Part shown: positions 1 through 37,779 of the stretch, in pieces
Layout: each line of letters opens with the position of its first letter
Numbering within the stretch: position 1 is the first letter of the stretch
Assembly: GCA_017404555.1 (NCBI GenBank)
Contig: JAFRCD010000002.1
Coordinates: 59,793-123,792 of the forward strand
Length of the DNA stretch: 64,000 nt
Origin: Bacilli bacterium
GTDB taxonomy: Bacteria > Bacillota_I > Bacilli_A > RF39 > UBA660
Reading direction: 5' to 3'
Position numbers and translations under genes: made by a program
The notes under the pieces: model-generated
What the model saw: only the letters and a program-made list of their open reading frames with translations
Told to the model about the DNA's origin: nothing
The model's database searches: none

Positions 1-684
1 TTTTCCTATAACTAAATGATATTTTTGAAAACCTTCATCATTCATACTACATGTCTGTAATATAATTATATTATCATTTTCATCTAATTCAATACCTGTT
101 TCATATAAAGACTTGTTTTTTAATTTATTAATATGTTCTTCCCAACTAAGGCCATTAAAAGAGTTTAAATTAACATAATCATAATCACTAGTCTCTATAT
201 AAGAAGAGTATATCTTATATTTTCTTATTCCTTTCATTGTATACAGATTAATACTATTATGTTTTTTCCAATAGTCTTTCTCAATATAATTATTTAGTTT
301 TAAGAAAGGTAATTCTTTTTCTTTGCCACTATGTCCATAAATTAATAGTTTTCTATCACTTAATTCATTTCTATAATCTAAAACAATACTGCCTTTATTA
401 TCATATTCCTTTTTATAATTATGATTCAAATAGTAATCATTATCATCACTTTGAAGTACTATACTACTAGTAACTTCTGGTATTTCGATATACGCCACAA
501 TATCATTATTCTGATATTTTTCTCTTAATTTATTAATATCGATACTTTCAGTTTTTTTCTTTTCGGCTACAATAGGTTTATTTTTATCTTTTGGTTTAAC
601 CTTTGAAGTACGATAAGAAAAAAGACTACATATAATAAGTATTACTACTAATAGAATTGTTGTTTTCCATAATCTATTTTTCAT
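1..684 (-). CDS. Class B sortase, truncated at the window edge (the C-terminal part lies outside)
   Basis: Reverse-complement translation from an ATG at 682-684 gives MKNRLWKTTILLVVILIICSL... with a signal-anchor, a catalytic His in LLIYGHSG and a sortase TLxTC-type motif ILQTCS. There is no stop before position 1. Confidence 0.7.
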   Translation of the reverse strand, partial: MKNRLWKTTILLVVILIICSLFSYRTSKVKPKDKNKPIVAEKKKTESIDINKLREKYQNNDIVAYIEIPEVTSSIVLQSDDNDYYLNHNYKKEYDNKGSIVLDYRNELSDRKLLIYGHSGKEKELPFLKLNNYIEKDYWKKHNSINLYTMKGIRKYKIYSSYIETSDYDYVNLNSFNGLSWEEHINKLKNKSLYETGIELDENDNIIILQTCSMNDEGFQKYHLVIGK

Positions 685-738
685 AATACCCCTCCAATTC
701 CCGTATATTATAACACAGTACACAAAAAAAAGAAAAAA

Positions 739-2205
739 TTAATTAAATCTTTTCTTTATCCTTAAACTCAATCCAAGTACACCTAATAATACTATAAACA
801 AATAAGCGTTAGAAGTCTTATTAGGATTAATTCCAGTTACTGGAGGAACTATTTCTGTTTTGCCAGTATCTTTTTTATAGTTAATTAGAGTTAATTTTAC
901 TTGGTGCTCTTCATCATATGGATTGTACCATCTAATTCCTAGTAAGTTTTGATAAGCGCCATTATCAAAATTATAAGCTGATATATCATAGGCGGTATTA
1001 TTGGTAAAAAACATGTATAAGTGCATATCTGCTGGATGGTGATCTCTATCACTGACTAAGTATTGATATAACTCATAGTATCTAGCAAGTTGAGCTTTTA
1101 CAGTGGCATTGTTTTTAGCATTATGATCTCCACCATTCCAGTGTCTAGCTAAAGTACCAAAGGCATTTCCATTACCAACACTAGTTGTGAAGACATCTGA
1201 TCCTAATGGAGCATTAGGAAGATAAATAAAACTTCTGAAATGAGTATATAAATACCAATAATATCTACCATCATAATAATAATCTTCAACGCCTTCAGGT
1301 ATAGCGCTTATTCTGGTTACTCCTTGAACTCTTGTCAAACCAGCATTTGTATAATTCTTTAAAGCATTCTCAGTAATATATCTAATTTCTGCTTCAGTTA
1401 AATCACTAAATAAGTCACTTGCTAATTGACGATGATAAATAATATCTAAGATTTTGTCATATAATTGTTGAGAACTTAAACTTTGATCAGATATGTCCCG
1501 AGGCTCTTTATTTTGTTCGGCATCAACATATACTGTTTGCACCATAAAATCCCTAATATCAGATGCAGTTAAAACTTCTCCATCATAATTAGAGTTTTCA
1601 TCGGGTGTTTCCCAATCTTGATTAATACAATAAACTTCTTCTTTGTGGCCATTAAAATCTACATAATATAAAGGTGTACCACCATAATGAGAACAAGGTG
1701 TTTTTGACCAATCAACACCAGCATCAAGATCAATAACCTCTACTTTAGCTGTAAAGGCCTTATCTTCAGCTTTTATATATCCCTCGGGTGCAGATACTTC
1801 ATGTAAAACATATTCTCCTTCTGGTAGTAAAACTTCATGACTAGTTCCATCAGAAACCCACTCATCAACAACAATACCATTAGAATCTATAATTTGGATT
1901 GTTGCACCTACTAAAGGATTACCAAGTTCATCTGTTTTATTAATAATAACAGAAATTTTATGAACCTCATTAATAATTACTCTTTCAGTAGTTGGTTCAT
2001 TAGTGTCTTCTATTTCATCACCAATTTCTCTAACTACTGGTATTTCTTCTATTTCTTCTAACGAATCATTACCTTCTTGTTCAACTTCTTCACCAATAGT
2101 TGGTTCTTCCACTACATCAGTATTTATTTCTTCAGCATTAACATCTAAAGAAATGAACATAAAAGAAAAAGCAATTAGTATAATCAAAAGTCTTAGATAT
2201 TTCAT
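739..2205 (-). CDS. Cell-surface protein with an acidic region, a CnaB/prealbumin-like domain and a C-terminal PPVTG sorting signal (predicted sortase substrate)
   Basis: Start moved to the internal Met (MKYLRLLIILIAFSFMFISLDVNA signal peptide), which is preceded by a GGGAGG RBS. The motif EGEYVLHEVSAPEGY is typical of CnaB-type domains. The C-terminus PPVTG + hydrophobic stretch + RIKKRFN is a sorting signal. Confidence 0.6.
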   Translation of the reverse strand: MKYLRLLIILIAFSFMFISLDVNAEEINTDVVEEPTIGEEVEQEGNDSLEEIEEIPVVREIGDEIEDTNEPTTERVIINEVHKISVIINKTDELGNPLVGATIQIIDSNGIVVDEWVSDGTSHEVLLPEGEYVLHEVSAPEGYIKAEDKAFTAKVEVIDLDAGVDWSKTPCSHYGGTPLYYVDFNGHKEEVYCINQDWETPDENSNYDGEVLTASDIRDFMVQTVYVDAEQNKEPRDISDQSLSSQQLYDKILDIIYHRQLASDLFSDLTEAEIRYITENALKNYTNAGLTRVQGVTRISAIPEGVEDYYYDGRYYWYLYTHFRSFIYLPNAPLGSDVFTTSVGNGNAFGTLARHWNGGDHNAKNNATVKAQLARYYELYQYLVSDRDHHPADMHLYMFFTNNTAYDISAYNFDNGAYQNLLGIRWYNPYDEEHQVKLTLINYKKDTGKTEIVPPVTGINPNKTSNAYLFIVLLGVLGLSLRIKKRFN

Positions 2206-2283
2206 ATTATTCCTCCCATGAAGCACCAAAGCATGACGCTTACTTAATTTATTATAATAAATGGTTAAAATGATTTTGTCAAA

Positions 2284-2318
2284 CAAAAAAGTATTTGCCA
2301 TCTTATTGGTAAATACTT
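2284..2318 (-). terminator. Rho-independent terminator after the MBL-fold gene
   Basis: Imperfect inverted repeat aagtatttgcca/tggtaaatactt (2289-2318) abutting the stop codon, followed by a U-run on the minus transcript. Confidence 0.5.
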
Positions 2319-2320
2319 TT

Positions 2321-2956
2321 TTAAAAATACAATTTTTCAATTACTTCAATATTTGTATCAGATAAGCACTCTTTTAGTTTTTTACCATCATCTTTATCTC
2401 CTATTATAGAACCATAATGAATAGGTATTACTATTTTAGGATTAATTGTTTTTACTAATTCCGTTGCTTCATTAACATCCATAGTAAAATATCCTCCAAT
2501 TGGAATAAAGGCAATATCACAGACTACACTTTCTGCTTCTTTAGTCTTATCAGTATCTCCAGCTATATAGTAAGTTATATTATTATAAGTTACTATATAA
2601 CCTAACCAATTATTTTCTCTTGGATGGAATTCTTTATTAATATTATAAGCTGGAATAGTTTTAATACTAATATTATCTATATTAGTTTCTTCATTAGGAT
2701 CTAAAAATATATAGTTCTTAAACTCCATTTTACTTATTACTTCCTTCATAGACTTAGGAGCAATTATAATGGTATTTTCATTCTTTACTTTTTCAATTGA
2801 TTCTTTATCTAAATGATCATAATGTTCATGAGTAATAAATATAATATCTGCATCCTTACTTTCTTCTTCAATTTTAAAAGGGTCAAAATAAATAATTTTA
2901 TTAAGTTCTAATCTAATACTACTCTGGGTATTAATTGTTACATTATCTGTTTCCAT
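2321..2956 (-). CDS. Small metallo-beta-lactamase-fold hydrolase
   Basis: HxHxDH motif (ITHEHYDHLD) and downstream His/Asp ligands; 211 aa with no signal peptide. Confidence 0.6.
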   Translation of the reverse strand: METDNVTINTQSSIRLELNKIIYFDPFKIEEESKDADIIFITHEHYDHLDKESIEKVKNENTIIIAPKSMKEVISKMEFKNYIFLDPNEETNIDNISIKTIPAYNINKEFHPRENNWLGYIVTYNNITYYIAGDTDKTKEAESVVCDIAFIPIGGYFTMDVNEATELVKTINPKIVIPIHYGSIIGDKDDGKKLKECLSDTNIEVIEKLYF

Positions 2957-2970
2957 ATTACCTTCCTTTT

Positions 2971-3813
2971 TTATTTTGTTTTAAATGATTTAAAGTCATT
3001 GCGAAAAGCTCCTGTTAAGGTCTTTACTACCATATCATGGCTTATGTCACTAGGTTTTCCTGAAGCAATTAATGGGATGTAGTGTTTTTCATATTCTTTT
3101 TGGATACTAGCATACGTAGACAGGTATTTATCATAATTATTATATCCAAATTCATAAGGAACCTCATATCCATGGAAATTTATTAGTTTGTCTTTCAGAC
3201 TTTCTTTATTAGCCCTATATAAATCACGTACTTTTCCTTCAGCTATCATATCTAGGTAAACATATCTTCTATCATCAAAAGAAATATCAATATTATCATT
3301 TTCCGGAACTCTATCGCATATGTTTTTTAAAATGTCATAGGACATATATTCATTTACTAATTCATAAATATAATCACCGTTTTGGCCGGTAAAACCAACC
3401 GATGGTTTAAACCGATGAATTAAAAAGGCCGGATTAGATATCTCACTTGGTTTTCCAATACCAAGATGTAAGGCGTGATTAAGTTCGTGAATTAAAGCAT
3501 GTAGTGAAAGAGGTTTGTTTACTTTATAAATTATAACAGGTGGTAATAAATTGGGAATTAGACCACCTAAAGTTTCTTCAATTTCTTTTAAATACTCATT
3601 TACTTTAATCTGTTCTTTATTATCTAAATCATTTATCTTAATATCTGAACATACATGGTTATTTCTATCTATAAAAACAAACCTAGTAGAGTCAATGGTA
3701 TTACTTATTCTATCTTGATACTCTTCACCATAAAAAGAAACAAATCCTTCCTTTAAAACAGGTAATAATTCATCAATATTCTTTTTAAATTTATTATTGT
3801 ACTCTTTATCCAT
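2971..3813 (-). CDS. Hypothetical cytoplasmic protein with an HExxH zinc-metallopeptidase-like motif
   Basis: HELNHALHLG motif and no signal peptide; AAGGAG RBS upstream of the start. Confidence 0.4.
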   Translation of the reverse strand: MDKEYNNKFKKNIDELLPVLKEGFVSFYGEEYQDRISNTIDSTRFVFIDRNNHVCSDIKINDLDNKEQIKVNEYLKEIEETLGGLIPNLLPPVIIYKVNKPLSLHALIHELNHALHLGIGKPSEISNPAFLIHRFKPSVGFTGQNGDYIYELVNEYMSYDILKNICDRVPENDNIDISFDDRRYVYLDMIAEGKVRDLYRANKESLKDKLINFHGYEVPYEFGYNNYDKYLSTYASIQKEYEKHYIPLIASGKPSDISHDMVVKTLTGAFRNDFKSFKTK

Positions 3814-3856
3814 AGTTTTACTCCTTTTATAAACCTCGTGAAATTAACTCTTTTTG

Positions 3857-4828
3857 TTATTTTTTCGCAACTATTGTATATTCATAAGTTGTTGTTGCTT
3901 TATAGTATGGTTTTAACACATTATAAGATACTTCTTTTATTCTATTACCAAATTCATCATATTCATATTCAATTGTATATGTGCCATTAGGACTACTCTG
4001 TGTTTCCTTAGTGATATTATCATCTTTATCATATTCATAGATATAAGTCATCTTATAATTGGTTTTATAATTAATAGTTGTTTTCTCTAATGTTTTTCCT
4101 TTAGAAGTCTTTTTATAACTATAGTGCCAAGTATTATCTTCAGTTGTTTTTCCATCTTTTATCTTTCTAAATCTTTCTGTTTTAATCTTATCATCTTTGT
4201 TATAAGTATAATTAATCCTTTCTATACCATAACTAGCAATTGAATACTCAACTATTTCTTCTTCCAAATTGTTCTTACTATTATATTTCATCTTATGAGT
4301 GGCATTAGAAGTACCACTAGTTTTAAAAGAAGTAATATTGTGAGTCTTAGAATCTACTTTATAATCAGAATAAAATATATTTCTAGAAAGTCCTGTTGTT
4401 TTAGTTTTAGCTAAAACCAGTTTTTCTTTAACTGTTTTACTATCTAACATAAGAGCATCTGTTAATTTAGGATTAGATATCATATCTTCTAGTTTTCCTA
4501 CTACAACTATTTTATCTCCTTTATTTAATCCCTTTAAAACTTCTTTATCTAAATAAACGTCAATTGGAGTTAAGGATCCTAGCTGACAATGATCCTTATT
4601 AATAGAGTATACTTCTCCCATATATAAATACCATTTTCCTTCATAGTCTTCAGCTTTAGCTTCATTAACAAAAACTTTGGAATGAACGGATTTCCAATTA
4701 AGAATTTCAGCTTTTTCCACTGGATCAATTGCTTTTTTTACTAGATCAAAAACACTACAACCAGTTAAACCTACTATTAATAATGCACTTATTAATATAC
4801 TTAAAAACATTTTTTTCATTTGTTTCAC
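3857..4828 (-). CDS. Lipoprotein with C-terminal YD/RHS-type repeats
   Basis: Lipobox LTGCSV after an N-terminal signal; repeated Y-x-Y-D-x-x-G-N units (YEYDEFGNRIKE, YIYEYDKDDN). Confidence 0.5.
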   Translation of the reverse strand: MKQMKKMFLSILISALLIVGLTGCSVFDLVKKAIDPVEKAEILNWKSVHSKVFVNEAKAEDYEGKWYLYMGEVYSINKDHCQLGSLTPIDVYLDKEVLKGLNKGDKIVVVGKLEDMISNPKLTDALMLDSKTVKEKLVLAKTKTTGLSRNIFYSDYKVDSKTHNITSFKTSGTSNATHKMKYNSKNNLEEEIVEYSIASYGIERINYTYNKDDKIKTERFRKIKDGKTTEDNTWHYSYKKTSKGKTLEKTTINYKTNYKMTYIYEYDKDDNITKETQSSPNGTYTIEYEYDEFGNRIKEVSYNVLKPYYKATTTYEYTIVAKK

Positions 4829-4851
4829 CTCTTTATTTTATTATAACTCAT

Positions 4852-5076
4852 TTATCTTCTTCTTTTAATATATGGTTCATCGTCATCAGTTAGATAATTA
4901 GTTAGATCAATATCATTATCAATAGCCATTTTTACTAATGTTTCTGGATTTGCTCGTTCTACTTTATCTAGTTCTACCATTGCTGCTGGAGAAACATTAA
5001 ACATTATCCCTTGGTAGTGTTGTTCTAAATCATCACGTAGTCTATCAATATCTAAAGTTATATCATCATTATCCAT
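4852..5076 (-). CDS. Small acidic hypothetical protein (74 aa)
   Basis: ORF with a Asp/Glu-rich sequence and no recognisable motif. Confidence 0.3.
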   Translation of the reverse strand: MDNDDITLDIDRLRDDLEQHYQGIMFNVSPAAMVELDKVERANPETLVKMAIDNDIDLTNYLTDDDEPYIKRRR

Positions 5077-5085
5077 AAATACCTC

Positions 5086-5724
5086 CTAATTAAATTTAAC
5101 ATATTTAAAGCCTAAGCTTTTATAAAAATCTGCTGCTCTTGGTAAGTTTAGCGCTCTAGCAATCAACAAATTGTACACTTCATCAAACATGACTATACTA
5201 AATAAAGTAATACTTAGTATTAAGAATGCTTTCTTAGACATTTTTTTAGATAAATATATACAAAATGGTACTATTCCATAGATTAATAAAAGTGAAGATA
5301 CTCCAAAGAAGAGAACACTTCTTAAACAGATAAAACCACCTATATTACCAAAATTCCATATTTCCTGATTATAATCCCATAGTCTTAGTCCATCACCTAT
5401 TTTATAGATTACAAGCCCTGAGAAATATTCTAATAGACCAGTAATAACAAGGGCCGCAATAAAAACTAATAGTGGTTTGTTTCTTATTTTCTTAGTGAAA
5501 AACATTACTAATAGAGCACCATAAGCATAAATATTAATCCAAGGAAGAAAATTACCTCCTTGCATATAAAACTCTTTACAGCCACCATCAAAGTAATAAA
5601 GAATAAATTCATATATCCAACCAAAGATACCAGCAAGAACAATAGTTAAGAATATAACTCCTACTTTCTGGTACATTTCAAGTGAAAGCTTATTTTCTTT
5701 ATATTTATTTATTATCTCTTTCAT
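5086..5724 (-). CDS. Integral membrane protein (4-6 TM), function unknown
   Basis: Multiple hydrophobic helices; possibly a CmpB-like small permease, but this is not verifiable here. Confidence 0.4.
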   Translation of the reverse strand: MKEIINKYKENKLSLEMYQKVGVIFLTIVLAGIFGWIYEFILYYFDGGCKEFYMQGGNFLPWINIYAYGALLVMFFTKKIRNKPLLVFIAALVITGLLEYFSGLVIYKIGDGLRLWDYNQEIWNFGNIGGFICLRSVLFFGVSSLLLIYGIVPFCIYLSKKMSKKAFLILSITLFSIVMFDEVYNLLIARALNLPRAADFYKSLGFKYVKFN

Positions 5725-5794
5725 AATGTCTCCTCATTACCATAAAAATATCATATATTTAGTTTTATTTCAAATAAAAAGAATAGATATTAAT

Positions 5795-7135
5795 CTATTC
5801 CTTCACTTTTCTCTCTTCCTTCTTTAAGTGCATAACTAGTAGTGTTCCTCCTACACCAATACCGGCTAGTATTACATAAGGTAGTATTGTAAAGATTAGT
5901 CCTGTTACTGGTGACATTTCTTTTGTATTATAGAAATCTACTGTTACTGTGTTTGAATCAGTATTCATATTATATAACCCAGTAGCACTAACATAGTAGC
6001 CACTAGTAGAACTTCCTCCGTTTACCGAGAATGCTGGAGTGTAATCACCTGGACTCTCCTCAATAGTGAAATAACTTCCATAACAAGTCTTTCCATCAAC
6101 AGCAGCTAATTTCTTGACGCTAGGCGTAGTTGAAAAATCGTATTTCTTATGATCAGGATCAGGATCAATATCGGGAGTTTCTTCCCCACAATAACCCCCA
6201 GGAATTACATCAAATGTGTTTCCTTCACTTGTTACTTGTCCGATGGTTGCTGTCTGGCCATGTTTTAAATATATTGTAGTCGGGGTTCCATCAGTTATTG
6301 TTGTTGGATTAGTTATGGTATTACCATTATAGGTTACTGTTGCGTCTATTCCACTTATTGGATATACCCATCCACTACTATCAATTATATTTGGCACTGC
6401 TCCTTCAGTAGTTTCATCTTGAACCAAGCCACTATCATTATCTATATTTATTGTGAATGGAAAATACTTAGTTGTATCAGCCCCAATGCCTTTTACAGTT
6501 TTAGATAGTTCTATGTGCCCAAATCTATTAGGATTGGTTTCTAAATAATGATCTGCATATAAGACCCCAGAAACTGGGGAAACTTTTTCTTCGTCATACT
6601 CATACTCCTCAGTTTGCTCATTATAGACAAGCCGTCTAAGTATTAATGAGACAGTATAATTACCTGTTGGTGTATTATTAGCATCTACTACATTTCTTAC
6701 TGATATTGTCACATCATAAAAAGCTGAATCTGACGAAGGAATAAAATAATTATTTAATATTTTTCCTTCACCAGCCTCTAGGCTACCTTGAAGGATATAG
6801 TATTCATAATCGCCTGGTTTTGTAAATGTTAAGCTTGATAAATTCATTGTTGTAGACTTCGTTATTTGATAGTTAGTTGGGGTATCACTCGCTGTATAGT
6901 TTATTGTTGCAGTTGCTACATCATTATTGCTCGAATATTCCACAAGAGTATACTTCATACTAGCCACTATTGGATTTGCTGTGTTTCTTATAGTCTCCCT
7001 AATAGTTATACTACTTGGTCCAACCCAGGTTACTGTTCCTGCGGCTTTTGCTTCTTTTATGTTTAGACTTAGTACTCCTATTAGTACTACTACAAGCATT
7101 AAAAATCCATTACGTATACTAAATACTTTCTTCAT
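5795..7135 (-). CDS. Cell-surface protein with an SPVTG sorting signal (predicted sortase substrate); paralogue of 27674..29611
   Basis: N-terminal signal peptide; C-terminal SPVTG + hydrophobic stretch + KKEERKVKE. Shares N-terminal (AAGTVTW) and C-terminal (FGHIELSKTVKGI, TATIGQ) modules with 27674..29611. Confidence 0.6.
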   Translation of the reverse strand: MKKVFSIRNGFLMLVVVLIGVLSLNIKEAKAAGTVTWVGPSSITIRETIRNTANPIVASMKYTLVEYSSNNDVATATINYTASDTPTNYQITKSTTMNLSSLTFTKPGDYEYYILQGSLEAGEGKILNNYFIPSSDSAFYDVTISVRNVVDANNTPTGNYTVSLILRRLVYNEQTEEYEYDEEKVSPVSGVLYADHYLETNPNRFGHIELSKTVKGIGADTTKYFPFTINIDNDSGLVQDETTEGAVPNIIDSSGWVYPISGIDATVTYNGNTITNPTTITDGTPTTIYLKHGQTATIGQVTSEGNTFDVIPGGYCGEETPDIDPDPDHKKYDFSTTPSVKKLAAVDGKTCYGSYFTIEESPGDYTPAFSVNGGSSTSGYYVSATGLYNMNTDSNTVTVDFYNTKEMSPVTGLIFTILPYVILAGIGVGGTLLVMHLKKEERKVKE

Positions 7136-7143
7136 ATACTTAC

Positions 7144-7164
7144 CTACCTTATATATTTATTATA
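7144..7164 (-). promoter_or_regulatory. Conserved 21-nt promoter/leader motif (ctaccttatatatttattata) shared with 29622..29642
   Basis: An identical 21-mer lies upstream of both paralogous surface-protein genes. On the minus strand it contains TATAAT-like sequence. Confidence 0.4.
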
Positions 7165-7200
7165 GCTTATCATTAAGGAACGTGTCAATTAAATGGGGAT

Positions 7201-7224: not shown

Positions 7225-8148
7225 TTATTTTGTAATTATTGTTGCTTCATTACCTTCTAAAGCATTAGTTAAATTATTTAAATCAGTGATGATAGCATCA
7301 TTACCTGTTTCTTTAACAAACTCAATAGCTGCTTCTACTTTAGGAAGCATACTTCCTTTAGCAAAGTGTCCTTCAGCTATATACTTTTCCATAGTAGCAA
7401 TATCTACTTTACCAATATCTTGAGCATTATCAGTATTATAGTTAATCTGAGCCTGTTTTATATTAGTTAGAATAACTAATAGATCAGCATTAATATTACG
7501 TGCCATTAATGAACATAATTTATCTTTATCAATAACAGCACTAGCACCTTTAGTAGGTTCATCTAAATAGACAGGAATTCCTCCACCGCCACCAGCAATA
7601 ACTATATTATCTTTTTCAATTAAATCTCTGATGGTATCTATTTCTACTATTTCTATTGGTTCTGGTGAAGCTACTACTTTTCGGTAACCACGTCCGGCAT
7701 CTTCAACATAAGTATCACCACTAGTTTCTTTTAATTTATCAGCTACTTCTTTAGTATAGAATGGTCCGATTGGTTTAGTAGGGTTTTTAAATGATGGATC
7801 ATTCTTATCAACCTTTACTTGGGTAATTAAACTAACTACACTTTTACTGATATTTTCTTCATTTAAGACCTCTTTAATTCCTTTTTGTAAGTGATAACCA
7901 ATATATCCTTGGCTCATGGCAGTACATTCAGCAAGCGGCATATAAGGAATATCTTCATTATCAAGACTGTTTTCAAAAGCCAAGTTAATAATTCCTACTT
8001 GAGGACCATTACCATGACCAATTACTACTTTATCACCAGCTTTTACTAAAGGAACAATAGTCTTAACAGCTTCCTTAATTAAAGCTTGTTGCTCGTCGGG
8101 AGTATTACCTAAAGCATTACCCCCGAAAGCAATAACTATTTTTCTCAT
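7225..8148 (-). CDS. aguC: Carbamate kinase
   Basis: [13 protein letters not shown] ... GHGNGPQVG carbamate-kinase signature; last gene of the aguBDAC arrangement. Confidence 0.9.
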
Positions 8149-9245
8149 TTTTTACCACTAGGTAATTGTTGAGTTATACAGTGAATATTACCTCCACCTA
8201 ATAGTATTTCTCTAGCATAGATTGGTTCAATCTTACGACCAGGGAATACTTCTTCTAATAACTTAATTGCTTTTTCATCATTAGGATCATTAAATACTGG
8301 TAGAGCAATAAAACCATTACCGGTATAAAAGTTAACATAACTAGCCGCTAATCGATCTCCTTCTTCACGAGGTAGAGTTCCGTCAACAGCATCTACACCT
8401 TCACTTTCTTCTTTAGTAATTAGAATAGGTGCTGGTGTATACATCTTATGAATAACTAGTTTTCTTCCCTTAGCATCTGTTTCACTTTCTAAGTAATCAT
8501 ATGCTTCTTTACTTCTTTCATATTGAGGATCATTCTCATCATCAGTCCAAGCAAGTAGTACTTCTCCTGGTTTAACAAAGTTACACATATTATCTACATG
8601 ACCATTAGTCTCATCATTATAGATTCCTCTTGGTATCCAAAGAACCTTTTCTACATTTAAGTATTCTTTTAATTTATCCTCAATTTCTTCTTTACTCATA
8701 TGAGAGTTTCTTCCTTCTGATAATAGACATTCAGCAGTTACCATACAAGTTCCTTCACCATCAACATGGATTGATCCACCTTCTAAGATAAAGTCATCAG
8801 TACGGTAACTATCAACACGTTCTAATTCACACATTTTACGTGCTATCTTATCATCAGAATCCCATGGGAAGTATAATCCATCTACTAATCCTCCCCAAGC
8901 ATTAAATGTCCAATCAACTCCTCTTACTTCTCCTTCATCTTTAACAACGAAAGTAGCACCACAATCACGTACCCAAGAGTCGTCATTAGCCATTTCTACT
9001 ACTCTAACATTATCATCTAAATGATGACGAGCATTATCAAATTGTGCTTTAGAGACAATTACTGTCATAGGTTCATATTTACCAATAGTATTAGCTACTT
9101 TAGTAAATACTTCTTGAGCTGGTTTAGCACCTAGTCTCCAGTTATCTGGCCTCTCTGGCCATATCATATAACATCCATTATGATGTTCAAATTCACCTGG
9201 CATTCTATAGCCATCTTTTTTTGGTGTTGTTTCTAATCTTTTCAT
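8145..9245 (-). CDS. aguA: Agmatine deiminase
   Basis: The N-terminus [16 protein letters not shown] and the C-terminus [11 protein letters not shown] are typical of agmatine deiminase. Start moved to the Met preceded by an AGGAGG RBS (ATG at 9243-9245). Confidence 0.85.
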
Positions 9246-9292
9246 ATTTCCTCCTATAATTAAATTAGTAGGTTTAAAACCCACTAATTTTT

Positions 9293-10702
9293 TTATTCTT
9301 TTACCTTTTTATCTTTTATTCTGGCTACGAGTATTTCCTCAATAATGAATGAGATTACTACTCCGGCAATAAGTGGAATGTTACCTATAATATAATCTTT
9401 TGTAAAGTCACCGAATAATGTGAATAATACTCCTAGTATTAATATTACAAATGGTACGATAGCAGCAACATGAATCATTACATTACCACCAGGTACTTTG
9501 TAAGGTCTTTTAGCATCTTTATCTGTTTTTCTAAGCTTCAAGAAAGCTAAGAACATTGGGATATAACCAACAAGTAGAGTTATCCAACTTAAACAGAAGA
9601 ATAAACTGAAGCCAGCTTCAAATGATTCACTAACGAAACTAGCAATTATTCCAGCAATAACAATTATAGAAGCTACGATACCATTAATGATTGAAGCCAT
9701 ATATGGTACGCCTTCTTTATTAGTTTTAGTAAATGCTTTTGGTAGCGAACCATCTTCAGCAGCATATTTAGCTACTTCGTTAACTCCAAAGCTCCATGAA
9801 GCTATATTAGCAATAAATGTATAAACAAACATACATCCAGCAATTATAACTAGTACTTTAATAGCAGAAGCACCTAAACCAACAGTAGCAAATAAAGCAT
9901 TTAATACATCAACAACTATTTCGGCACCTGCTCCTATCCAATCAGCATTAGCTGGTAGGGCAACATTGAATCCTGTTGCTGGTAAAACATAGAAGAAGGC
10001 CATTAAAAGTCCTCCAATGATTAGGGCTTTTGGTATTTGTTTCTTTGGATCATCCATATCATTAGCCCAAGTTCCTACTACTTCAAATCCCATGAAGTTG
10101 AATAGGATGATAGAAACGAATGATAAATCTCCTAAATTAAGTCCAGGGAATAAATCCTTTGCACTAGTAATTGGGTTAGCACTATGTCCTGTTGATATAA
10201 AGGCATAAATACCAAGAGCTCCAATTCCTAATAGTAATACTACTTTAAATACTGTTCCTAAGTTAACAATATATTTACTTTCGCCAACACGTTTAGTTCC
10301 TAAGAATGTAACAAACCAAATGTATAGTAATTGAATACAAAGTAGTGTTACAATACTTAGTTCTACACCGAACATTCCCGCAATAATATCTGTCACAGCT
10401 ACAGCTAATGAAGATATCCATAATGGGAAGTTAATCCAGTAGTTCCAGGCAACACGACCTGCCCATTTAGGGCCAAAAGCACGTTTTACCCAGTCATACA
10501 TCCCTCCTTCTGAAGGATATGTTGTTCCAAGCTCTGCTGTAATCATTCCGTATGGTAAGCAGAAGCATACCAATAGTAGGATCCACCAGAAATACTGAGT
10601 ATTACCAATAGCGGCGGTTGGCATTACAGATTCACACACTAAGGTAAGACAAACAGTTCCTAAAATGGCATCCATCAATTTAAATTTTCTTTTCTTTGCC
10701 AT
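9293..10702 (-). CDS. aguD: APC-family amino acid/polyamine antiporter, probably the agmatine:putrescine antiporter
   Basis: About 12 TM helices and an APC-family profile; sits between aguB and aguA as in known agu operons. Confidence 0.7.
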
Positions 10703-10703
10703 A

Positions 10704-11693
10704 TTAATTTTCCTTTCCTAATAATTTATTACATTCTTCACAGGCTTCATCCTTCTTACCCATGAAGTATACTAAAAGCCCTCTCATGGCTGTTAGTCGA
10801 TTTTCAGCTTCATCGAAGCAAATAGAAACATTCTCATCATCCATAACATCATCAGTTACTTCTTCACCTCTAGTTGCTGGTAAACAGTGCATAAACTTAA
10901 CGTTTGGAGCACATTTAGCTAGTAACTCTTTATTAACTTGATATTTAGGATAGAATATTTTCATTCTCTCTTCTTTAGGCATTTCTGATTCATATAATCC
11001 ATACCAAACATCGGTATAAACGAAATCAGCATCTTTTAAGGCTTCTTCAGCATTATCAGTTATTAAGTAAGTACCTCCAGATACTTTACAGTTTTCTTCT
11101 AAAGAATCAATATAATCTCCTCGAAGTTGGAATCCCTCTGGTCCAAAGTGAACAAAGTGACCACCCATCTTCGTAATCATCATTCCAAGTGATGCACATA
11201 CTTGAGTACAATCACCAACAAAGACAACTTTGATATCTTCTAATCCTTTACCTTCTGGTAAGTGTTCAAAGATAGTAATGATGTCACCCATTTCCTGAGT
11301 TGGATGATTATAATCACTCATACCATTTAGTACTGGTACTTGTGAATATTGCGCTAACTCAGCAATAGTCTTATGCTCAATTACTCTAGCCATGATAATA
11401 TCAACAAGTCTTGACATAACAATAGCCGTATCCTTCATACTCTCATGTTTACCAAGTTGTAAGTTTCCTGGAGCAAAATACTGAGCATGTCCTCCTAACT
11501 GTGTCATCGCTGTCTCAAATGAAACCCTCGTTCTCGTAGAAGCTTGTTCAAAGATCATTCCTAAAGTCTTATGATATAACGTATTTAACGTATGACCAGC
11601 TTTAAGAGTTTTTTTGATTAATAAGCTTAACTGGAGAATATCCAAAAGTTCCTCTTTAGTAAAATCTTGGGTTGTAACATAATCTTTTTTCAA
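10704..11693 (-). CDS. aguB: Putrescine carbamoyltransferase
   Basis: Carbamoyltransferase STRTR motif (STRTRVSFE) and HCLP motif. The start codon appears to be TTG (caa at 11691-11693 on the plus strand), preceded by an AAGGAGG RBS. Confidence 0.8.
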
Positions 11694-27673: not shown

Positions 27674-29611
27674 TTACTTTTGATGTTTCACCTTTAATTT
27701 TTCTCTATTTTGAAATAATAACACTCCTCCAACACCTATACCGACTAGTATTAGATAAGGTAGGATTGTTAGAAATAATCCTGTCACCGGTGAACCTTCT
27801 CTTTGATTATAGAAATTAACAACATTACCATTATGAGTTATCGAGTTAGATCCCGTATCATTTCCACTAGACTCACTTCCACTATTTATCTTAAAGGTTG
27901 TGGTATAGTCACTTTCTGTACCTTCTATTATCTTGTAATAATCATCTATAGAAATAGAGTCGTAAGTATTGTTGTTATATGTAAACTGTCCTATAGTAGC
28001 TGTTTCTCCATGATTTAGAGTAATTGAATCTTTTGTACCACTCTTACACTTAGTTACTTCAGAACCATCTTCAGGTACTCCTGTTCCTTTTATTAAGTAT
28101 TTCTCACTTCCAGAGTAACTTTGACAAGCACTACTTGCAGCATCATCTACTTGAACACTGAAACTAAAGTCTTTAGTTCTATCAGCCATAATACCTTTAA
28201 CTGTTTTAGTTAGTTCTATATGTCCAAACTTAGTTTCATCCTTTGGCTCATTAAAAGGCATATTACTTACTTTGGTATCATTATCATCTTTAATAACAAA
28301 CTTAGCATTAAAGTTTCCTGTTGGAGTTCCATTTTGATCAGTTACATTTGTTACTTGTACTATTACTGTATATTCATTATCATTATCTACTGGATATGCA
28401 CTATTACTAGTAGCAGTCTCTTTCACAGTCAATTCATAATTGCCTGGTTTTTTAAAGCTTAGTCCCATATTAGCAAAATTAATTGTTGTACTCTTATTTA
28501 CTGTATAACTATTACTTACAGTTTCAGTTCCAGCGAAAGATATGTCTTGGGTGTAGAATACTATTCCACTACCAAAAGTTGGTGATTGGGATGGAGATGA
28601 TACTTGACTACCCTTTATAACGTTTGATCCTGCTGATTTAGTAGCGATTATATTATCAATATTAGAAGTTCCACTCCCATAGTTTACTGATATTTGGGTT
28701 CCTGATTGCGTAGCTGCATTAGTAAAGGCACCACTATAATTTGTTGGGTTAGCTAATATCTGAATTGTCCCAGAAGCATTTGTACAACCATTGAACATAT
28801 TATTAACATTAGTCACCCTTGAAGTGTCCCAATTACTAATACTATTTATATTGCTCAAACTACTACAGCTATCAAACATCCCTCCCATATTTGTTACTTT
28901 GGAAGTGTTCCAATCTGATAAAGAATTTATACTTGTTAAAGAACTACAGTAAATGAACATGGCAGACATAGTAGTTACATTTGAAAGATCCCACGCACTT
29001 GTTGCATCTACACTAGATAATTGTGAACAATATGCAAACATCCAAGATGTATTAGTTGTTTTAGAAGCATCTACTAAACTAAGGCCTGATATATCCATTA
29101 ATCCTTGCATGTTTCTAAACATGTTGGCAGAAGATGAATTCAAGTATATTTTATCTGCTTCACTATAATAATACATCGTTCCGTCCGTACTATCAAAAAA
29201 GATGTATATTGGAAACTCCGAATTGGCTACCGATACTGTGTTTGCTGCGGTTGGAACAAAACCACTTGGTAAAGAACCAGCTTTTTTTATAGATTTTATT
29301 GCAGTGTCAGGTGAGCTGTATGTCTTTGTTGAACCATTAGCAAGAGTTTTCATTATTCCATTAACTGTTGTTCCTGTGTTAAAAGTTGCCAATCTAATTA
29401 GTGAGGTATCTTCTGTTGATATACTATAAGTAAAATCTACTACAGGAGCATTATAAACGTTTTGTATTGTCCTTGATATTGTTGCAGTACTACCATCTGG
29501 CCAGTTAACAGTACCTGCCGCTTTTACTTCCATTGTTTTGAATGTTAACACTCCTACTAGTGCTACTACAAGTATTAAAGTTATATTGTATAAATTAAAT
29601 ACTTTTTTCAT
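27674..29611 (-). CDS. Cell-surface protein with DUF285-type repeats and an SPVTG sorting signal; paralogue of 5795..7135
   Basis: Signal peptide. Tandem repeats of about 26 aa with W-[DN]-[TL]-S-x-V-T-x-M-x-x-M-F-x-x-C. C-terminal module shared with 5795..7135, then SPVTG + hydrophobic stretch + NREKLKVKHQK. Confidence 0.6.
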   Translation of the reverse strand: MKKVFNLYNITLILVVALVGVLTFKTMEVKAAGTVNWPDGSTATISRTIQNVYNAPVVDFTYSISTEDTSLIRLATFNTGTTVNGIMKTLANGSTKTYSSPDTAIKSIKKAGSLPSGFVPTAANTVSVANSEFPIYIFFDSTDGTMYYYSEADKIYLNSSSANMFRNMQGLMDISGLSLVDASKTTNTSWMFAYCSQLSSVDATSAWDLSNVTTMSAMFIYCSSLTSINSLSDWNTSKVTNMGGMFDSCSSLSNINSISNWDTSRVTNVNNMFNGCTNASGTIQILANPTNYSGAFTNAATQSGTQISVNYGSGTSNIDNIIATKSAGSNVIKGSQVSSPSQSPTFGSGIVFYTQDISFAGTETVSNSYTVNKSTTINFANMGLSFKKPGNYELTVKETATSNSAYPVDNDNEYTVIVQVTNVTDQNGTPTGNFNAKFVIKDDNDTKVSNMPFNEPKDETKFGHIELTKTVKGIMADRTKDFSFSVQVDDAASSACQSYSGSEKYLIKGTGVPEDGSEVTKCKSGTKDSITLNHGETATIGQFTYNNNTYDSISIDDYYKIIEGTESDYTTTFKINSGSESSGNDTGSNSITHNGNVVNFYNQREGSPVTGLFLTILPYLILVGIGVGGVLLFQNREKLKVKHQK

Positions 29612-33895: not shown

Positions 33896-33979
33896 AGAAC
33901 CTCCTTTTTAATAATTTTATGTATTTACTAAATAAAAATTGAATAAATTTGTTATAATACTATTAACGGGGTGATTTCT

Positions 33980-35104
33980 ATGTTACGTCAAAAAATTAGT
34001 TTTAAAATTATTATCCCTGTAATTTTATTTGCGATTATCAGCATTGTTACTATTTATAGTGCTTCTACATATATTTCTGCTGGTATGGGTAACTTAGCTT
34101 TAAAACAAGCTATTTGGTATTTAGCAGGTATAGTGGTAGTTATTTTTATCGTTAAGATGGGTAATAATTATTTATATGACAAAGCCTTTCTTTTCTATAT
34201 TTTTGGAATAGTATCCCTTTTAGGATTATTACTTTTCGCAACACCTATTAATAGTAGTAAATGTTGGTATATTGTACCAGGTTTAGGAAGTATTCAACCA
34301 AGTGAATTTATGAAAATATTCTTAATGCTTTACTTAGGAGTATTTATTCATGATTTTAGGGATAAGTATACTAATCCTTCTATTAAAGAAGAATTAATCT
34401 TTATTATAAAATCGTTTGTTATCTTCTTAATACCCGCTGTTTTAACCTTCATGCAACCTGATACAGGATCTGTTATTATTTATTTAGTAATATATCTTTG
34501 TATGATGTTTTTATCAGGGATTAGAGCCAGATGGTTTATTATTGCTTTTGGAATTATTGGTGCTATCTTAGGTACCGTTTTAGGAATATATTTCTTCAAT
34601 GGTGATATGTTTATAAAAGTTTTTGGTACTGATTTATTCTACCGTTTAGATAGAATATTTGCTTGGACTAGTGGTAGTGGATTACAACTAGAAAATGCTT
34701 TAGCATCCATTGGTTCAGGGGGTTTAGTTGGTCACGGATTTAACCATACTCCATTATACTTCCCTGAATCAGGAACAGATTTTATCTTTGCTGTTTTCGC
34801 TTCTAATTTTGGTTTTATTGGTTGTCTATTACTAGTTGGTCTAATTCTTTATTTTGATATTAATCTAATACTACTTTTCAAAAAGAAAATCCAAGATACA
34901 GAAAAGTTCGTTTTAGCAGGTATTGTGGGAATGCTTTTATTCCAACAAATCCAGAATATTGGTATGACAATTGGTCTATTACCTATAACTGGAATTACTT
35001 TACCATTTATATCTTATGGAGGAAGTTCCCTTCTATCATACATGATATTAATTGGTATTTTGATAAACATTTCTAATGAAAAAGATCATAAATATAAATA
35101 TTAA
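33980..35104 (+). CDS. SEDS-family peptidoglycan glycosyltransferase (FtsW/RodA/SpoVE)
   Basis: Ten-TM protein with SEDS blocks (QPSEFMK, GHGFNHTPLYFPESGTDFIFAV, PFISYGGSS). Start at the ATG at 33980 behind a GGGGTGA RBS. Confidence 0.85.
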   Translation: MLRQKISFKIIIPVILFAIISIVTIYSASTYISAGMGNLALKQAIWYLAGIVVVIFIVKMGNNYLYDKAFLFYIFGIVSLLGLLLFATPINSSKCWYIVPGLGSIQPSEFMKIFLMLYLGVFIHDFRDKYTNPSIKEELIFIIKSFVIFLIPAVLTFMQPDTGSVIIYLVIYLCMMFLSGIRARWFIIAFGIIGAILGTVLGIYFFNGDMFIKVFGTDLFYRLDRIFAWTSGSGLQLENALASIGSGGLVGHGFNHTPLYFPESGTDFIFAVFASNFGFIGCLLLVGLILYFDINLILLFKKKIQDTEKFVLAGIVGMLLFQQIQNIGMTIGLLPITGITLPFISYGGSSLLSYMILIGILINISNEKDHKYKY

Positions 35105-35868: not shown

Positions 35869-37779
35869 CTAAGAATAAACATATTTATAATTAGCTTTGC
35901 ATTTACTAACCCAATAAGAACAAGTCTTTTTCACTCTTGTTGACCTACAACAACGATACTTATTACCACTACGTTCAATAGTTAAACCATTGGCAGAAGA
36001 ACACGCTATTCGGCCATTATTAGGAACCGCCCAACCACTACATGATTTTGTCGTATAAGAACAATCATAATACTTTGTACACCCTGTATAATGAGAAAAT
36101 ACTGATTTTCTCTTATATGTTTTAGAAAAAGCTTTACTATTTCCGGCATTATCTGTACAAGTACTACTTATTGTTACACTGGTTCCACTCATTTTTTTAG
36201 AAGTATTGCCACTCTTAATTCCACTTAAGGCATCAGAACATGTTAATTTAGCAGTTCCGCCTGCAGCTATTTGTCCACTAGTAAAGCTTCCTGTAGGATT
36301 AGTACGATCCAGTTTTATAGTATAATTGCTAGAATATGATGAACAATTTCCTAATTTATCACATGCACGATACTTAATATACGATACCCCTTGTGCTTCG
36401 ATGTTGCGAGCTGAAGCTTTTATATTGGTGTCGTTGGAAGTTTTTCCAGTTGTTGTATATTGATAATATACCCCTCCTGCTCCACTATCAGTAGCACCAC
36501 TAGCATTTGTATAGACTTTTCCAGAAAACCAAGTATTATTTGGATAAGCACTTAAGCCACTGGCATTCGCTGGTTTTGTACTGGCATTCTTCCATTTATA
36601 AAGACCTACTTTTAACCCTGTTGGGGCGGTTTTATCAAAATAAGCATCATAAATACAAGATTGAGTGTTTCCCACTTTATCTTTAATCGTTTCCGTGTAT
36701 TTTGCGGTAGTACCACTAGAAAATGTTCTTTGATAAGGACTTTTTTCACAACCACTCTCGTTATCAGCACATGCCAATTTTATTGTTCTACTACTATTAG
36801 TCCAGGTTGTACTTGCCCCTGTAGCCTTTCCACATGTTGGCGGCGTTATATCAATATAAACATTATAAGAGCAAACTTTTTCATTACCGGCTTTATCAGC
36901 TATTGTTACTGAGGCTCTCTTAGTAGTTTCTAAATAAGTATTATTGTAACTACCTCTTGCACAATTACTTCCACCTGTATCATTACAAACTTGGTTTATT
37001 GTACGAGCTTTTTTCGTCCATACATCACTAGCATTTTTTGCCTCTCCACAAGTTGGTGGTGTTTTATCTATTTTTACTTCAACTACTCTGCTTTGGCAAG
37101 TAACTCCGTTAGCACCTCTACCTATTATTCTATATTTGCTTATTCCAGGTTCACTTATAGTAATTGTTTTTTCTTCGTGATTATCGGAATCAAATTTAAC
37201 CCAACCAGCTGCAGTTTGTTTTAGAATATCAAAACTTTCTATTTTGGTAGGTTTTTTAGCTTTCAATATTACATCTTGATTTGTCCATATATTAGCTGGT
37301 GTAGCCTGCAGTATATTATCACAATTTATTATCTTTCCCATATTTGGATCTGCTGTACTTTCTATAACTTTATTTTTATAATTAGGGCAATTCAAATACG
37401 TTTTATAATCATATTTTTTCTCGCCTGTTTTGGTTATTACTACATAACTTTTTTCATCATAAGGCTCACTGGCATTAGGATCACATACTTCTTTAGCATA
37501 ATCTTTTACTTGTTCTATATAATCCTCACTTTGTAAATCAGCTAACGCGACTTTATTTGATTGACCAACTCTAATAGGGCGTTCTCCCTTATGGTCATTA
37601 TAGTAATCCATTCCAGCTGCTACCACTAATTTATCTATTCTTCTATAATAGCTTTTTTCTAAACTCTTCCGTACACCACTTACACCCATTATAGCTAAAG
37701 TTGTTAAAACAGCTACTATAGCTAAGGTTGTTAATAGTTCTACCATTGTAAAACCTTTTTTATTCTTCACTATCATCAC
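35869..37779 (-). CDS. Large type IV prepilin-like protein with cysteine-rich Ig-like repeats
   Basis: Class III signal KGFTMVELLTTLAIVAVLTTLAI (G/FTxxE). Four repeats of about 75-90 aa begin D-x-T-[PAN]-PT-[CG] and carry conserved Cys pairs; a Cys-rich C-terminal tail follows. Confidence 0.6.
   Translation of the reverse strand: MMIVKNKKGFTMVELLTTLAIVAVLTTLAIMGVSGVRKSLEKSYYRRIDKLVVAAGMDYYNDHKGERPIRVGQSNKVALADLQSEDYIEQVKDYAKEVCDPNASEPYDEKSYVVITKTGEKKYDYKTYLNCPNYKNKVIESTADPNMGKIINCDNILQATPANIWTNQDVILKAKKPTKIESFDILKQTAAGWVKFDSDNHEEKTITISEPGISKYRIIGRGANGVTCQSRVVEVKIDKTPPTCGEAKNASDVWTKKARTINQVCNDTGGSNCARGSYNNTYLETTKRASVTIADKAGNEKVCSYNVYIDITPPTCGKATGASTTWTNSSRTIKLACADNESGCEKSPYQRTFSSGTTAKYTETIKDKVGNTQSCIYDAYFDKTAPTGLKVGLYKWKNASTKPANASGLSAYPNNTWFSGKVYTNASGATDSGAGGVYYQYTTTGKTSNDTNIKASARNIEAQGVSYIKYRACDKLGNCSSYSSNYTIKLDRTNPTGSFTSGQIAAGGTAKLTCSDALSGIKSGNTSKKMSGTSVTISSTCTDNAGNSKAFSKTYKRKSVFSHYTGCTKYYDCSYTTKSCSGWAVPNNGRIACSSANGLTIERSGNKYRCCRSTRVKKTCSYWVSKCKANYKYVYS

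Follow-up and report, generated by a model that had tools for sequence, protein, structure and literature searches.

A class B-family sortase lacking the canonical arginine, with candidate PPVTG and SPVTG substrates, in an uncultured Bacilli genome

The pairing of class B sortases with (S/P)PxTG sorting signals is already known from Clostridioides difficile and other gut Firmicutes. In C. difficile, SrtB (CD2718) is the only sortase, and it recognizes SPxTG and PPxTG signals on dispersed surface proteins (CD2831, CD3246, CD2537 and CD3392), CnaB-type adhesins among them (PMC5118464, PMC4155245). In Mediterraneibacter gnavus, SPXTG proteins (the Ibp superantigens) are anchored to the wall by a SrtB3 paralogue, and gut Firmicutes carry several SrtB homologues that form clades of their own, separate from the textbook enzymes, and have candidate substrates encoded alongside (PMC13121745). 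An SPXTG tail has also been reported on the IgA protease of Thomasclavelia ramosa. Here we describe a related locus in an uncultured Bacilli bacterium, found in a stretch of 64,000 nucleotides that we call the window (assembly GCA_017404555.1, contig JAFRCD010000002.1, positions 59,793 to 123,792): a class B-family sortase, a secreted protein ending in PPVTG encoded directly upstream of it, and two further proteins ending in SPVTG. What appears to be new, judging from sequence comparison, is an arginine-less active site with an invariant glutamine, which we call QTC and which recurs in hundreds of protein clusters, together with an extended E-I-x-P-P-x-T-G motif.

A preliminary description of the window had reported a class B sortase (ILQTCS) beside a CnaB-domain protein ending in PPVTG, a hydrophobic stretch and RIKKRFN, as well as two proteins (5795..7135 and 27674..29611) that end in SPVTG, a hydrophobic stretch and a basic tail. 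We located all of these features, the SPVTG motifs at 5900..5914 and 27779..27793. The description had missed the absence of the arginine, the thioester adhesin identity of the PPVTG protein, and the pilin fold of the SPVTG proteins, which opens a pilus reading of the locus. We supplemented the evidence from the window with four other regions of the same genome, so that about 150 kb of the genome was sampled. The features of the sortase are as follows.

1..684, minus strand: class B-family sortase of the QTC subtype, residues 1-228 of 230, reading from 684 to 1 and off the window edge; the full protein ends ...VIGKEV
Residues 5-24 of the sortase, minus strand: N-terminal membrane anchor, from the translation
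331..333, minus strand: catalytic His118 (in YGH), invariant in the two sortase alignments (A1 and A3)
175..189, minus strand: S166-D167-Y168-D169-Y170 pocket, from alignment to C. difficile SrtB
49..60, minus strand: LQTC motif within IILQTCS, with the catalytic Cys212 and, at Cys-2, Gln210
16..18, minus strand: His223, at the position of the canonical catalytic arginine (start of strand beta8), from HMMER and global MAFFT alignment

The two sortase residues missing from the window (...KEV) were taken from an identical metagenome contig (L001). By sequence the enzyme is class B, as the preliminary description had it, and not class A or D. The class B sortase model TIGR03064 is its sole NCBIfam match (E 1.2e-33), it also matches the Pfam Sortase family, and all 15 of its 15 PDB matches are SrtB-family structures. 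The TIGR03064 alignment covers profile positions 8-228 of 235, and therefore the N-terminal helix and the beta6/beta7 insertion regions of class B are present in the sequence. With the single sequence as query, Listeria Lmo2181 SrtB came marginally first in the PDB (9.4e-25), C. difficile SrtB scored 8e-24 (about 1e-23), and the SrtBs of B. anthracis, S. aureus and C. perfringens and S. pyogenes Spy0129 came next. With a family profile of 29 sequences, C. difficile SrtB was the top match (2.6e-36), while Spy0129 scored 5e-21 and the SrtB-family sortase 4y4q 2e-18. Relatives of the window sortase are named 'class B sortase' by NCBI. The relationship between the window enzyme and C. difficile SrtB is a distant one. 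Among 48 diverse homologues, down to 40% identity, His118, Cys212 and 23 other columns are invariant, which argues for a working enzyme.

The catalytic arginine has been described as strictly conserved in all sortases (PMC3019223). It stands at the start of strand beta8, where it is Arg217 in C. difficile SrtB and Arg229 in Spy0129. In the window enzyme there is no arginine after Cys212, the tail of the protein being SMNDEGFQKYHLVIGKEV. Canonical SrtBs have LSTC at the site of LQTC, and the S. aureus SrtB arginine is Arg233. The phmmer, hmmsearch and hhalign alignments end just past the TC motif, with the exception of one Listeria alignment; HMMER aligned KGR-MVI of Listeria with KYH-LVI of the window. 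Because the local alignments stop there, we used global MAFFT alignment, in which the arginine of five canonical LSTC-type SrtBs falls in the His223 column. A minority of the family retains an arginine in the same context (KYRLVIG), which confirms the column and indicates that the arginine is ancestral.

To follow this residue across the family we used 260 homologues: a word-indexed search gave 120, and the other 140 came from running an HMM exhaustively against 1.84 billion cluster representatives. The motif is xQTC in 254 of them, and 235 of these 254 have no arginine at the position, which is taken by Q (76), K (50), S (32), H (24), T (13), Y (12), N (10) and others. The remaining 6 have xSTC, and all six keep the arginine. 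Within the close family the glutamine at Cys-2 (Gln210) is invariant. In a library clustered at 50% identity the clade comprises 347 clusters at E <= 1e-30, and its distant QTC sortases all come from metagenomes. The substrates encoded next to these enzymes retain PPxTG with any of R, Q, H, Y and T at this position of the enzyme. This pattern of conservation suggests that the enzyme still works and has ceased to need the arginine. We found no description of a QTC sortase, or of any sortase lacking the catalytic arginine, in the searchable literature. Several relatives have two QTC-type paralogues (one copy is at L008:14001-14837; the loci L019 and L027 belong to one metagenome-assembled genome (MAG), as do L035 and L040), and in most cases each copy has a giant PPxTG protein of its own next to it.

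The gene directly upstream of the window sortase encodes the PPVTG protein.

685..738, minus strand: spacer of 54 nucleotides from the adhesin stop to the sortase start, with a GGAGG ribosome-binding site at 691..695 and no terminator-like site in a terminator scan
739..2205, minus strand: secreted adhesin of 488 residues with signal peptide, acidic linker, CnaB2/SpyCatcher-like domain, predicted thioester domain and cell-wall sorting signal
1738..1953, minus strand: CnaB2/SpyCatcher-like domain, residues 85-156 (Pfam SpaA PF17802, E 1e-11; PDB CnaB2/SpyCatcher matches)
About residues 157-445 of the adhesin, minus strand: predicted thioester domain, from an AlphaFold model and Foldseek
1627..1629, minus strand: predicted thioester Cys193 in VYCINQDWETP
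949..951, minus strand: predicted thioester Gln419 in YQNLLG
832..855, minus strand: sorting motif E-I-V-P-P-V-T-G, with PPVTG at 832..846, followed by INPNKTSN, a transmembrane segment and RIKKRFN
2254..2282, minus strand: promoter-like site matching 11 of 12 consensus positions, upstream of the adhesin-sortase pair

The two genes are probably transcribed together. In full, the tail of the adhesin reads ...KTEIVPPVTG-INPNKTSN-AYLFIVLLGVLGLSL-RIKKRFN. Most of the protein, a region of about 290 residues, has no confident sequence annotation, and its identity comes from modelling. An AlphaFold model built with 60 homologues (alignment A2) has a predicted local distance difference test score (pLDDT) of 82, and above 90 over most of residues 160-430; in Foldseek its best match is Cpa/Spy0125 (6.6e-12), and it also matches the C. 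perfringens thioester domains (template modelling (TM) score 0.73-0.75), SfbI and FNE. Thioester domains carry two motifs, [YFL]C-hydrophobic-hydrophilic and hydrophobic-Q-hydrophilic-hydrophobic-hydrophobic (Walden et al., PMC4450167). Both are present here, as Y192-C193-I-N and Y418-Q419-N-L-L, and Cys193 and Gln419 are invariant with their motifs in the 60 homologues; over a larger set of 120 homologues YCIN is found in 116 and YQNL[LI] in 112. The Pfam thioester domain model TED (PF08341) scores below its gathering score in the window protein (14.3 bits vs 22, E 0.058), and 22 of the 60 homologues give weak matches, the best at 2.4e-4. We conclude from the model and the motifs that the PPVTG protein is a predicted Cpa-like thioester-domain adhesin, in which Cys193 and Gln419 would form the thioester bond.

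The known TIE adhesins (Cpa, SfbI and those of C. perfringens and B. anthracis; PMC4450167) share with the window protein the YCIN/YQNLL-type motifs and the fold (TM score up to 0.75, to 5a0g), and like FbaB it has a CnaB2-type stalk domain. It is unlike them in that the CnaB domain stands before the thioester domain and not after it, that the Pfam model stays below threshold, that the TQxA helix motif is degenerate (TENAL), and that the sorting signal is of class B type and not LPXTG. In the CnaB2-like domain an isoleucine aligns with the isopeptide lysine of SpyCatcher, Lys31, and the domain may form no isopeptide bond. Between the signal peptide and this domain lies an acidic, low-confidence linker of about 55 residues (residues 25-80, EEINTDVVEEPTIGEEVEQEGNDSLEEIEE...).

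Two lines of evidence, composition and comparison with other genomes, bear on the sorting motif. Scanning the 60 gene-like open reading frames (ORFs) of the window (19,989 residues), we found [SP]PxTG exactly three times, each 35-39 residues from the C-terminus, where amino-acid composition would lead us to expect 0.19 occurrences anywhere and 0.02 in C-terminal tails; on these numbers we rejected a chance occurrence of the motif. No other xPxT[GASN] followed by a transmembrane segment and a basic tail was found among the window ORFs. We considered LPITG in the protein at 33947..35104 as a fourth substrate and rejected it, this motif lying in an internal membrane helix of an FtsW/RodA-family protein; a similar false positive, 'IPVTG', recurs in other loci.

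Independent gut and rumen MAGs supplied 23 related loci in which the sortase gene has, immediately upstream, an ORF for a large secreted protein (446 to 3,047 residues) that ends in E-[IV]-[TVIL]-P-P-[NKQVHT]-T-G (once T-S), a polar spacer of 3-13 residues, a transmembrane segment and a short basic tail. When one motif stays constant across giant proteins that are otherwise unrelated, and the enzyme beside them is always the same, the comparison argues strongly for a cognate enzyme-signal pair. The adhesin homologues carry only class-B-style signals, among them NPQTG (24), PPVTG (18), SPQTG (15) and NPPTG (9) as well as NPKTG, NPQTS, NPKTA and NPQTN. In both the PPVTG and the SPVTG families of the window lineage, P2 is valine, where other lineages have N, K, Q or H, and this fits a single reader enzyme. 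Four loci (L011, L015, L018 and L024) have no upstream PPxTG gene; in these, a protein of about 613 residues ending in NPKTG or TPKTG, a transmembrane segment and RSRKR is encoded about 3 kb downstream of the sortase, which has Tyr or Thr at the arginine position.

The recognition pocket can be compared with that of C. difficile SrtB. In the published model of that enzyme, Tyr167 and Asp166 contact the P4 proline, and Ser163 and Asp164 contact the P2 residue; activity is lost on mutation to S163A or Y167A, so the mutated pocket residues matter for PPKTG cleavage (PMC5118464). The S166-D167-Y168-D169-Y170 of the window enzyme is identical, residue for residue, to Ser163-Tyr167 of C. difficile. 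Every related locus keeps D[FY]DY, and the four arginine-containing LSTC relatives that align across the pocket loop have TDF[YFD]Y in its place.

The preliminary description had taken the motifs to be the published C. difficile SrtB signal, which they are (PMC5118464, PMC4155245), and to point to a specificity particular to that lineage. As far as the binding pocket goes, its identity supports a C. difficile-type specificity. It is not lineage-specific, the host being an uncultured gut Bacilli MAG and SPXTG being found in other gut Firmicutes. The two systems are alike in that both have a class B enzyme, SPxTG/PPxTG signals before a transmembrane segment and basic tail, dispersed substrates and CnaB-type adhesins among them. 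They differ in that the window enzyme belongs to a different bacterial class and has LQTC and His223 where C. difficile SrtB has LSTC and Arg217, in that it adjoins one substrate, an adjacency kept in relatives, in the extension of its motif and the polar spacer, and in that the window genome has at least two sortases. A further difference concerns regulation: an Rfam scan of the window matched only two tRNAs and no riboswitch, so that control by a cyclic di-GMP riboswitch upstream of the substrates, as for C. difficile CD2831 and CD3246, was rejected.

Iron-regulated SrtBs (S. aureus, B. anthracis and Listeria, with NPQTN, NPKTG or NxxTN signals) belong to the same family (E 1e-28 to 1e-33) and likewise have a sortase beside its substrate and non-LPXTG signals; homologues of the window adhesin carry NPQTG, NPKTG and NPQTN. 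Unlike these systems, there are no isd or haem-uptake genes near the window sortase, and iron-regulated SrtBs have a TTDF[YF]Y pocket loop and LSTC with arginine, whereas the window enzyme has SDYDY. By its published description, M. gnavus SrtB3 resembles our system: both come from gut commensals, with SPXTG signals and candidate substrates encoded beside SrtB homologues, and the two differ in class, Clostridia there and Bacilli here.

The two SPVTG proteins are encoded farther into the window.

5795..7135, minus strand: two-domain pilin-fold surface protein of 446 residues (Spy0128/T-antigen-like, DUF7601), from Pfam, profile, AlphaFold and Foldseek
5900..5914, minus strand: SPVTG of the 446-residue protein, followed directly by the conserved transmembrane segment LIFTILPYVILAGIGVGG and a basic tail
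6584..6586, minus strand: Lys184 (EKVSPVSG), candidate pilin-linking lysine, near-invariant, in the loop leading into the last N-domain strand
7159..7188, minus strand: perfect sigma-70 consensus TTGACA-18-TATAAT, upstream of the gene at 5795..7135
27674..29611, minus strand: protein of 645 residues with a PARCEL/DUF285 repeat head, the same two pilin-fold domains and SPVTG at 27779..27793 (Pfam DUF285 and DUF7601; NCBIfam PARCEL repeat and streptococcal pilin isopeptide domain)
L044:10001-11287, L045:2217-3596, L045:10001-11263 and L046:10001-11320, same genome: SPVTG paralogue copies

In both proteins the hydrophobic segment follows SPVTG at once and is followed by a lysine-rich basic tail. 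A profile of the SPVTG family matches PitB (6e-6) and Spy0128 (5e-4) in the PDB, and also FctB. The AlphaFold model of the 446-residue protein has a pLDDT of 83.6, and its Foldseek matches are the Spy0128 major pilin and T-antigens (3e-17, TM score 0.61-0.65) and PitB. Across 38 homologues the sorting region ...KEMSPVTGLIFTILPYVILAGIGVGG... is almost unchanged, with SVVTG, SIVTG, SPFTG and APLTG as rare forms, and the motif is conserved in 35 of the 38 if the SVVTG, SIVTG and APLTG variants are counted. The expectation of the preliminary description that the hydrophobic tails follow a conserved pentapeptide thus holds in both substrate families across homologues.

At least 9 SPVTG paralogues are present in the genome (6 or more of them short, 3 or more PARCEL-headed), with near-identical signal peptides and sorting signals and variable middles, so that by analogy the family looks like a variable surface-antigen family. 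These genes are single and scattered among housekeeping genes, each apparently with its own promoter; in the window they lie 3.6 kb and 25 kb from the sortase, and others adjoin leuS, spo0A or a glucosaminidase gene. The perfect promoter at 7159..7188 and the 11/12 site at 2254..2282 suggest strong constitutive expression. We also observed that the Lys184 loop EKVSPVSG (6566..6589) resembles the protein's own sorting motif EMSPVTG (5900..5920), and that in the short paralogues this loop reads K[VI][SN]P[VS]SG, often after a Cys...Cys acidic insert.

We think it probable, if not strongly so, that the adhesin and sortase form a dedicated module in which the adhesin is wall-anchored, and that this enzyme most likely processes the SPVTG proteins as well. 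The adhesin would be secreted and held in the membrane by its C-terminal transmembrane segment and basic tail. The sortase would then bind E-I-V-P-P-V-T-G, with the first proline in the D-Y-D-Y pocket as in C. difficile SrtB, and Cys212, with His118, would cleave between Thr and Gly. An amine of a peptidoglycan precursor would resolve the acyl-enzyme and leave the adhesin covalently attached to the wall. The dispersed SPVTG proteins, both the two in the window and the others of the genome, could be handled in the same way, since C. difficile SrtB takes both SPxTG and PPxTG (PMC5118464).

Several points weigh against this reading. The arginine that the enzyme lacks is described as strictly conserved, so activity cannot be assumed, and the case for activity in the QTC clade comes from sequence comparison. 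The TIGR03064 score of 116 bits is under the equivalog cut-off of 153.75, partly because the local alignments break off past the TC motif. The two signal types differ, PPxTG having a polar spacer before the transmembrane segment and SPVTG having none, with a highly conserved transmembrane segment, and in other loci the SPVTG genes never adjoin the sortase. The predicted folds of the substrates match parts of a class-B-sortase pilus, so polymerization may be possible. Finally, our view of the genome is limited to the roughly 150 kb sampled, and within it we found a second sortase, in the same genome or population.

L046:19985-20794 and L047:11635-12444, outside the window: second, more divergent class-B-like sortase, 269 residues, TLVTC, with the arginine kept in KIDARMV (TIGR03064, 59.9 bits)

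This second enzyme raises a less likely alternative, a division of labour in which the window sortase serves the PPVTG adhesin alone and the SPVTG family is handled by the second, arginine-containing enzyme or by one we have not seen; the likelihood we give it overlaps those of the anchoring and pilus readings. For this reason the claim in the preliminary description of at least three dispersed substrates within 30 kb stands as far as the three [SP]PxTG proteins go, while the assignment of two of them, the SPVTG proteins, to the window sortase is inferential. The second sortase lies 8.7 kb from an SPVTG paralogue, and besides the differences in spacer and transmembrane conservation, adjacency of sortase and substrate is conserved for PPxTG proteins only. 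However, unrelated housekeeping genes separate the second sortase from that paralogue, and its two fully readable neighbours have no recognizable sorting signal. The shared valine at P2, the acceptance of both motif types by C. difficile SrtB and the identity of its pocket residues with those of the window enzyme also speak against a split. The cluster around the second sortase encodes a 518-residue multi-pass membrane protein, a 594-residue Big-like protein with no sorting signal and a 996-residue secreted protein whose C-terminus is off the locus.

A pilus is less likely still, and we consider it improbable. The proposal would be that SPVTG proteins are polymerized through Lys184 into a shaft, with the Cpa-like PPVTG adhesin or the PARCEL-headed paralogues at the tip, after the manner of the S. 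pyogenes FCT-2 pilus (Cpa/Spy0125, Spy0128, Spy0129, SipA and Spy0130) and the S. pneumoniae PI-2 pilus (PitA, PitB and SrtG1). The locus has all three part types, a Spy0128/PitB-fold protein, a Cpa/Spy0125-like adhesin and a class B sortase, and as in these pili the motifs are of xPxTG type rather than LPXTG. The Spy0129 polymerase is itself a class B sortase, using EVPTG, VPPTG and a lysine on a loop atop the N-domain (PMC3019223), and the near-invariant Lys184, a candidate linking lysine, sits in an N-domain loop, the one that precedes the final strand; in Spy0128 the linking lysine is Lys161 (PMC3019223). Against this, no gene for a SipA/LepA-like protein (S24/S26-like Pfam) is present in the gene lists over the window and the four other regions. 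The pilin-fold genes are dispersed, multi-copy and single, with their own apparent promoters, and do not form a pilus operon, and Lys184 is kept also in the PARCEL-headed, would-be tip forms among the nine or more paralogues. In other genomes the conserved partner of the sortase is a protein of 1,000-3,000 residues and not a pilin. The motifs are SPVTG and PPVTG here vs EVPTG and VPPTG, the window sortase lacks the arginine that Spy0129 has, and by the profile comparison above it is nearer to the anchoring SrtB of C. difficile than to Spy0129 or 4y4q.

That the enzyme has decayed, being inactive without the arginine or merely binding its partner, with the C-terminal tails serving as plain membrane anchors, is very improbable: the missing arginine, the wide and seemingly unconstrained variation of the residue at its position (Q, K, S, H, T, Y, N and others) and the sub-threshold TIGR03064 score would fit, but His118, Cys212, Gln210 and some 20 other positions are invariant down to 40% identity, the clade is large, the strict E-I-x-P-P-x-T-G in neighbours of sortases with R as well as with Q, H, Y or T would be puzzling if recognition and cleavage were not under selection, and SrtA with citrulline for Arg197 is reportedly still active.

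The last of these points suggests that hydrogen bonding rather than charge may matter at this position. In the window enzyme Gln210, or the substrate itself, may supply the hydrogen bonding that normally comes from the arginine, and Gln210 is the obvious candidate for its replacement. On this basis we propose, tentatively and with somewhat less than even confidence, that the QTC sortases are an undescribed, widespread class B subclass of uncultured gut Bacilli that sorts without the arginine, the invariant glutamine and the P1 threonine of the substrate taking over transition-state and substrate positioning, and that the window enzyme might also build Spy0128-type fibres from interchangeable pilin-fold subunits.

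The source organism is an uncultured ruminant-gut bacterium. The 446-residue SPVTG protein is 100% identical to IJH13_00820 (NCBI, 'MAG: Bacilli bacterium'), and the window proteins carry IJH13_* tags. All 40 of the 40 genome loci with relatives of the sortase come from uncultured MAGs of goat, sheep, cattle or human gut, labelled Bacilli, Erysipelotrichaceae, Tenericutes or Mycoplasma, one of them a closed 1.26-Mb chromosome. We therefore rejected C. difficile or a close relative as the source. The organism has a cell wall, to judge from the murG, murB, ftsQAZ, ftsW, mreCD and two FemAB genes found in the window and its sister contigs. Genes for Spo0A (L045:9155-9919), a CotZ-like protein (L049:17656-18045) and a Cse60-like protein (L044:12257-12469), in what is a small-genome Bacilli MAG, hint at a capacity for sporulation or remnants of it. 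Two other loci in the window lie apart from the sorting system. A cluster of the agmatine deiminase pathway lies directly downstream, in window coordinates, of the SPVTG gene at 5795..7135, and a 246-residue protein of unknown function and a facing FtsW/RodA gene neighbour a protein with a weak prepilin match.

7225..11693, minus strand: agmatine deiminase pathway cluster with carbamate kinase, agmatine deiminase, an amino-acid permease and putrescine/ornithine carbamoyltransferase
35869..37779, minus strand: protein of 636 residues with a weak N_methyl Pfam match (type IV pilin-like prepilin)

Sortases are of interest as drug targets and are in wide use for protein ligation; textbooks describe their mechanism as a His-Cys-Arg triad. 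If sorting by QTC enzymes without the arginine is real, this textbook triad would not be universal, and a natural arginine-less clade that is apparently under selection would be a ready-made test of what the arginine does. Peptides of the two sorting signals, Abz-KTEIVPPVTGINPN-Dnp and Abz-NTKEMSPVTGLIFT-Dnp, could serve as assay substrates for the window sortase. QTC enzymes may also be a source of ligases whose proline-rich E-I-x-P-P-x-T-G recognition is orthogonal to LPXTG. The pairing of (S/P)PxTG signals with class B sortases is extended here beyond Clostridioides, which aids the annotation of surface proteomes in metagenomes. For the small-genome, uncultured Bacilli of rumen and gut, the locus illustrates how the surface may be decorated, by a putative thioester adhesin that would bind covalently and by pilin-fold proteins from a multigene family in which some members are PARCEL-headed.

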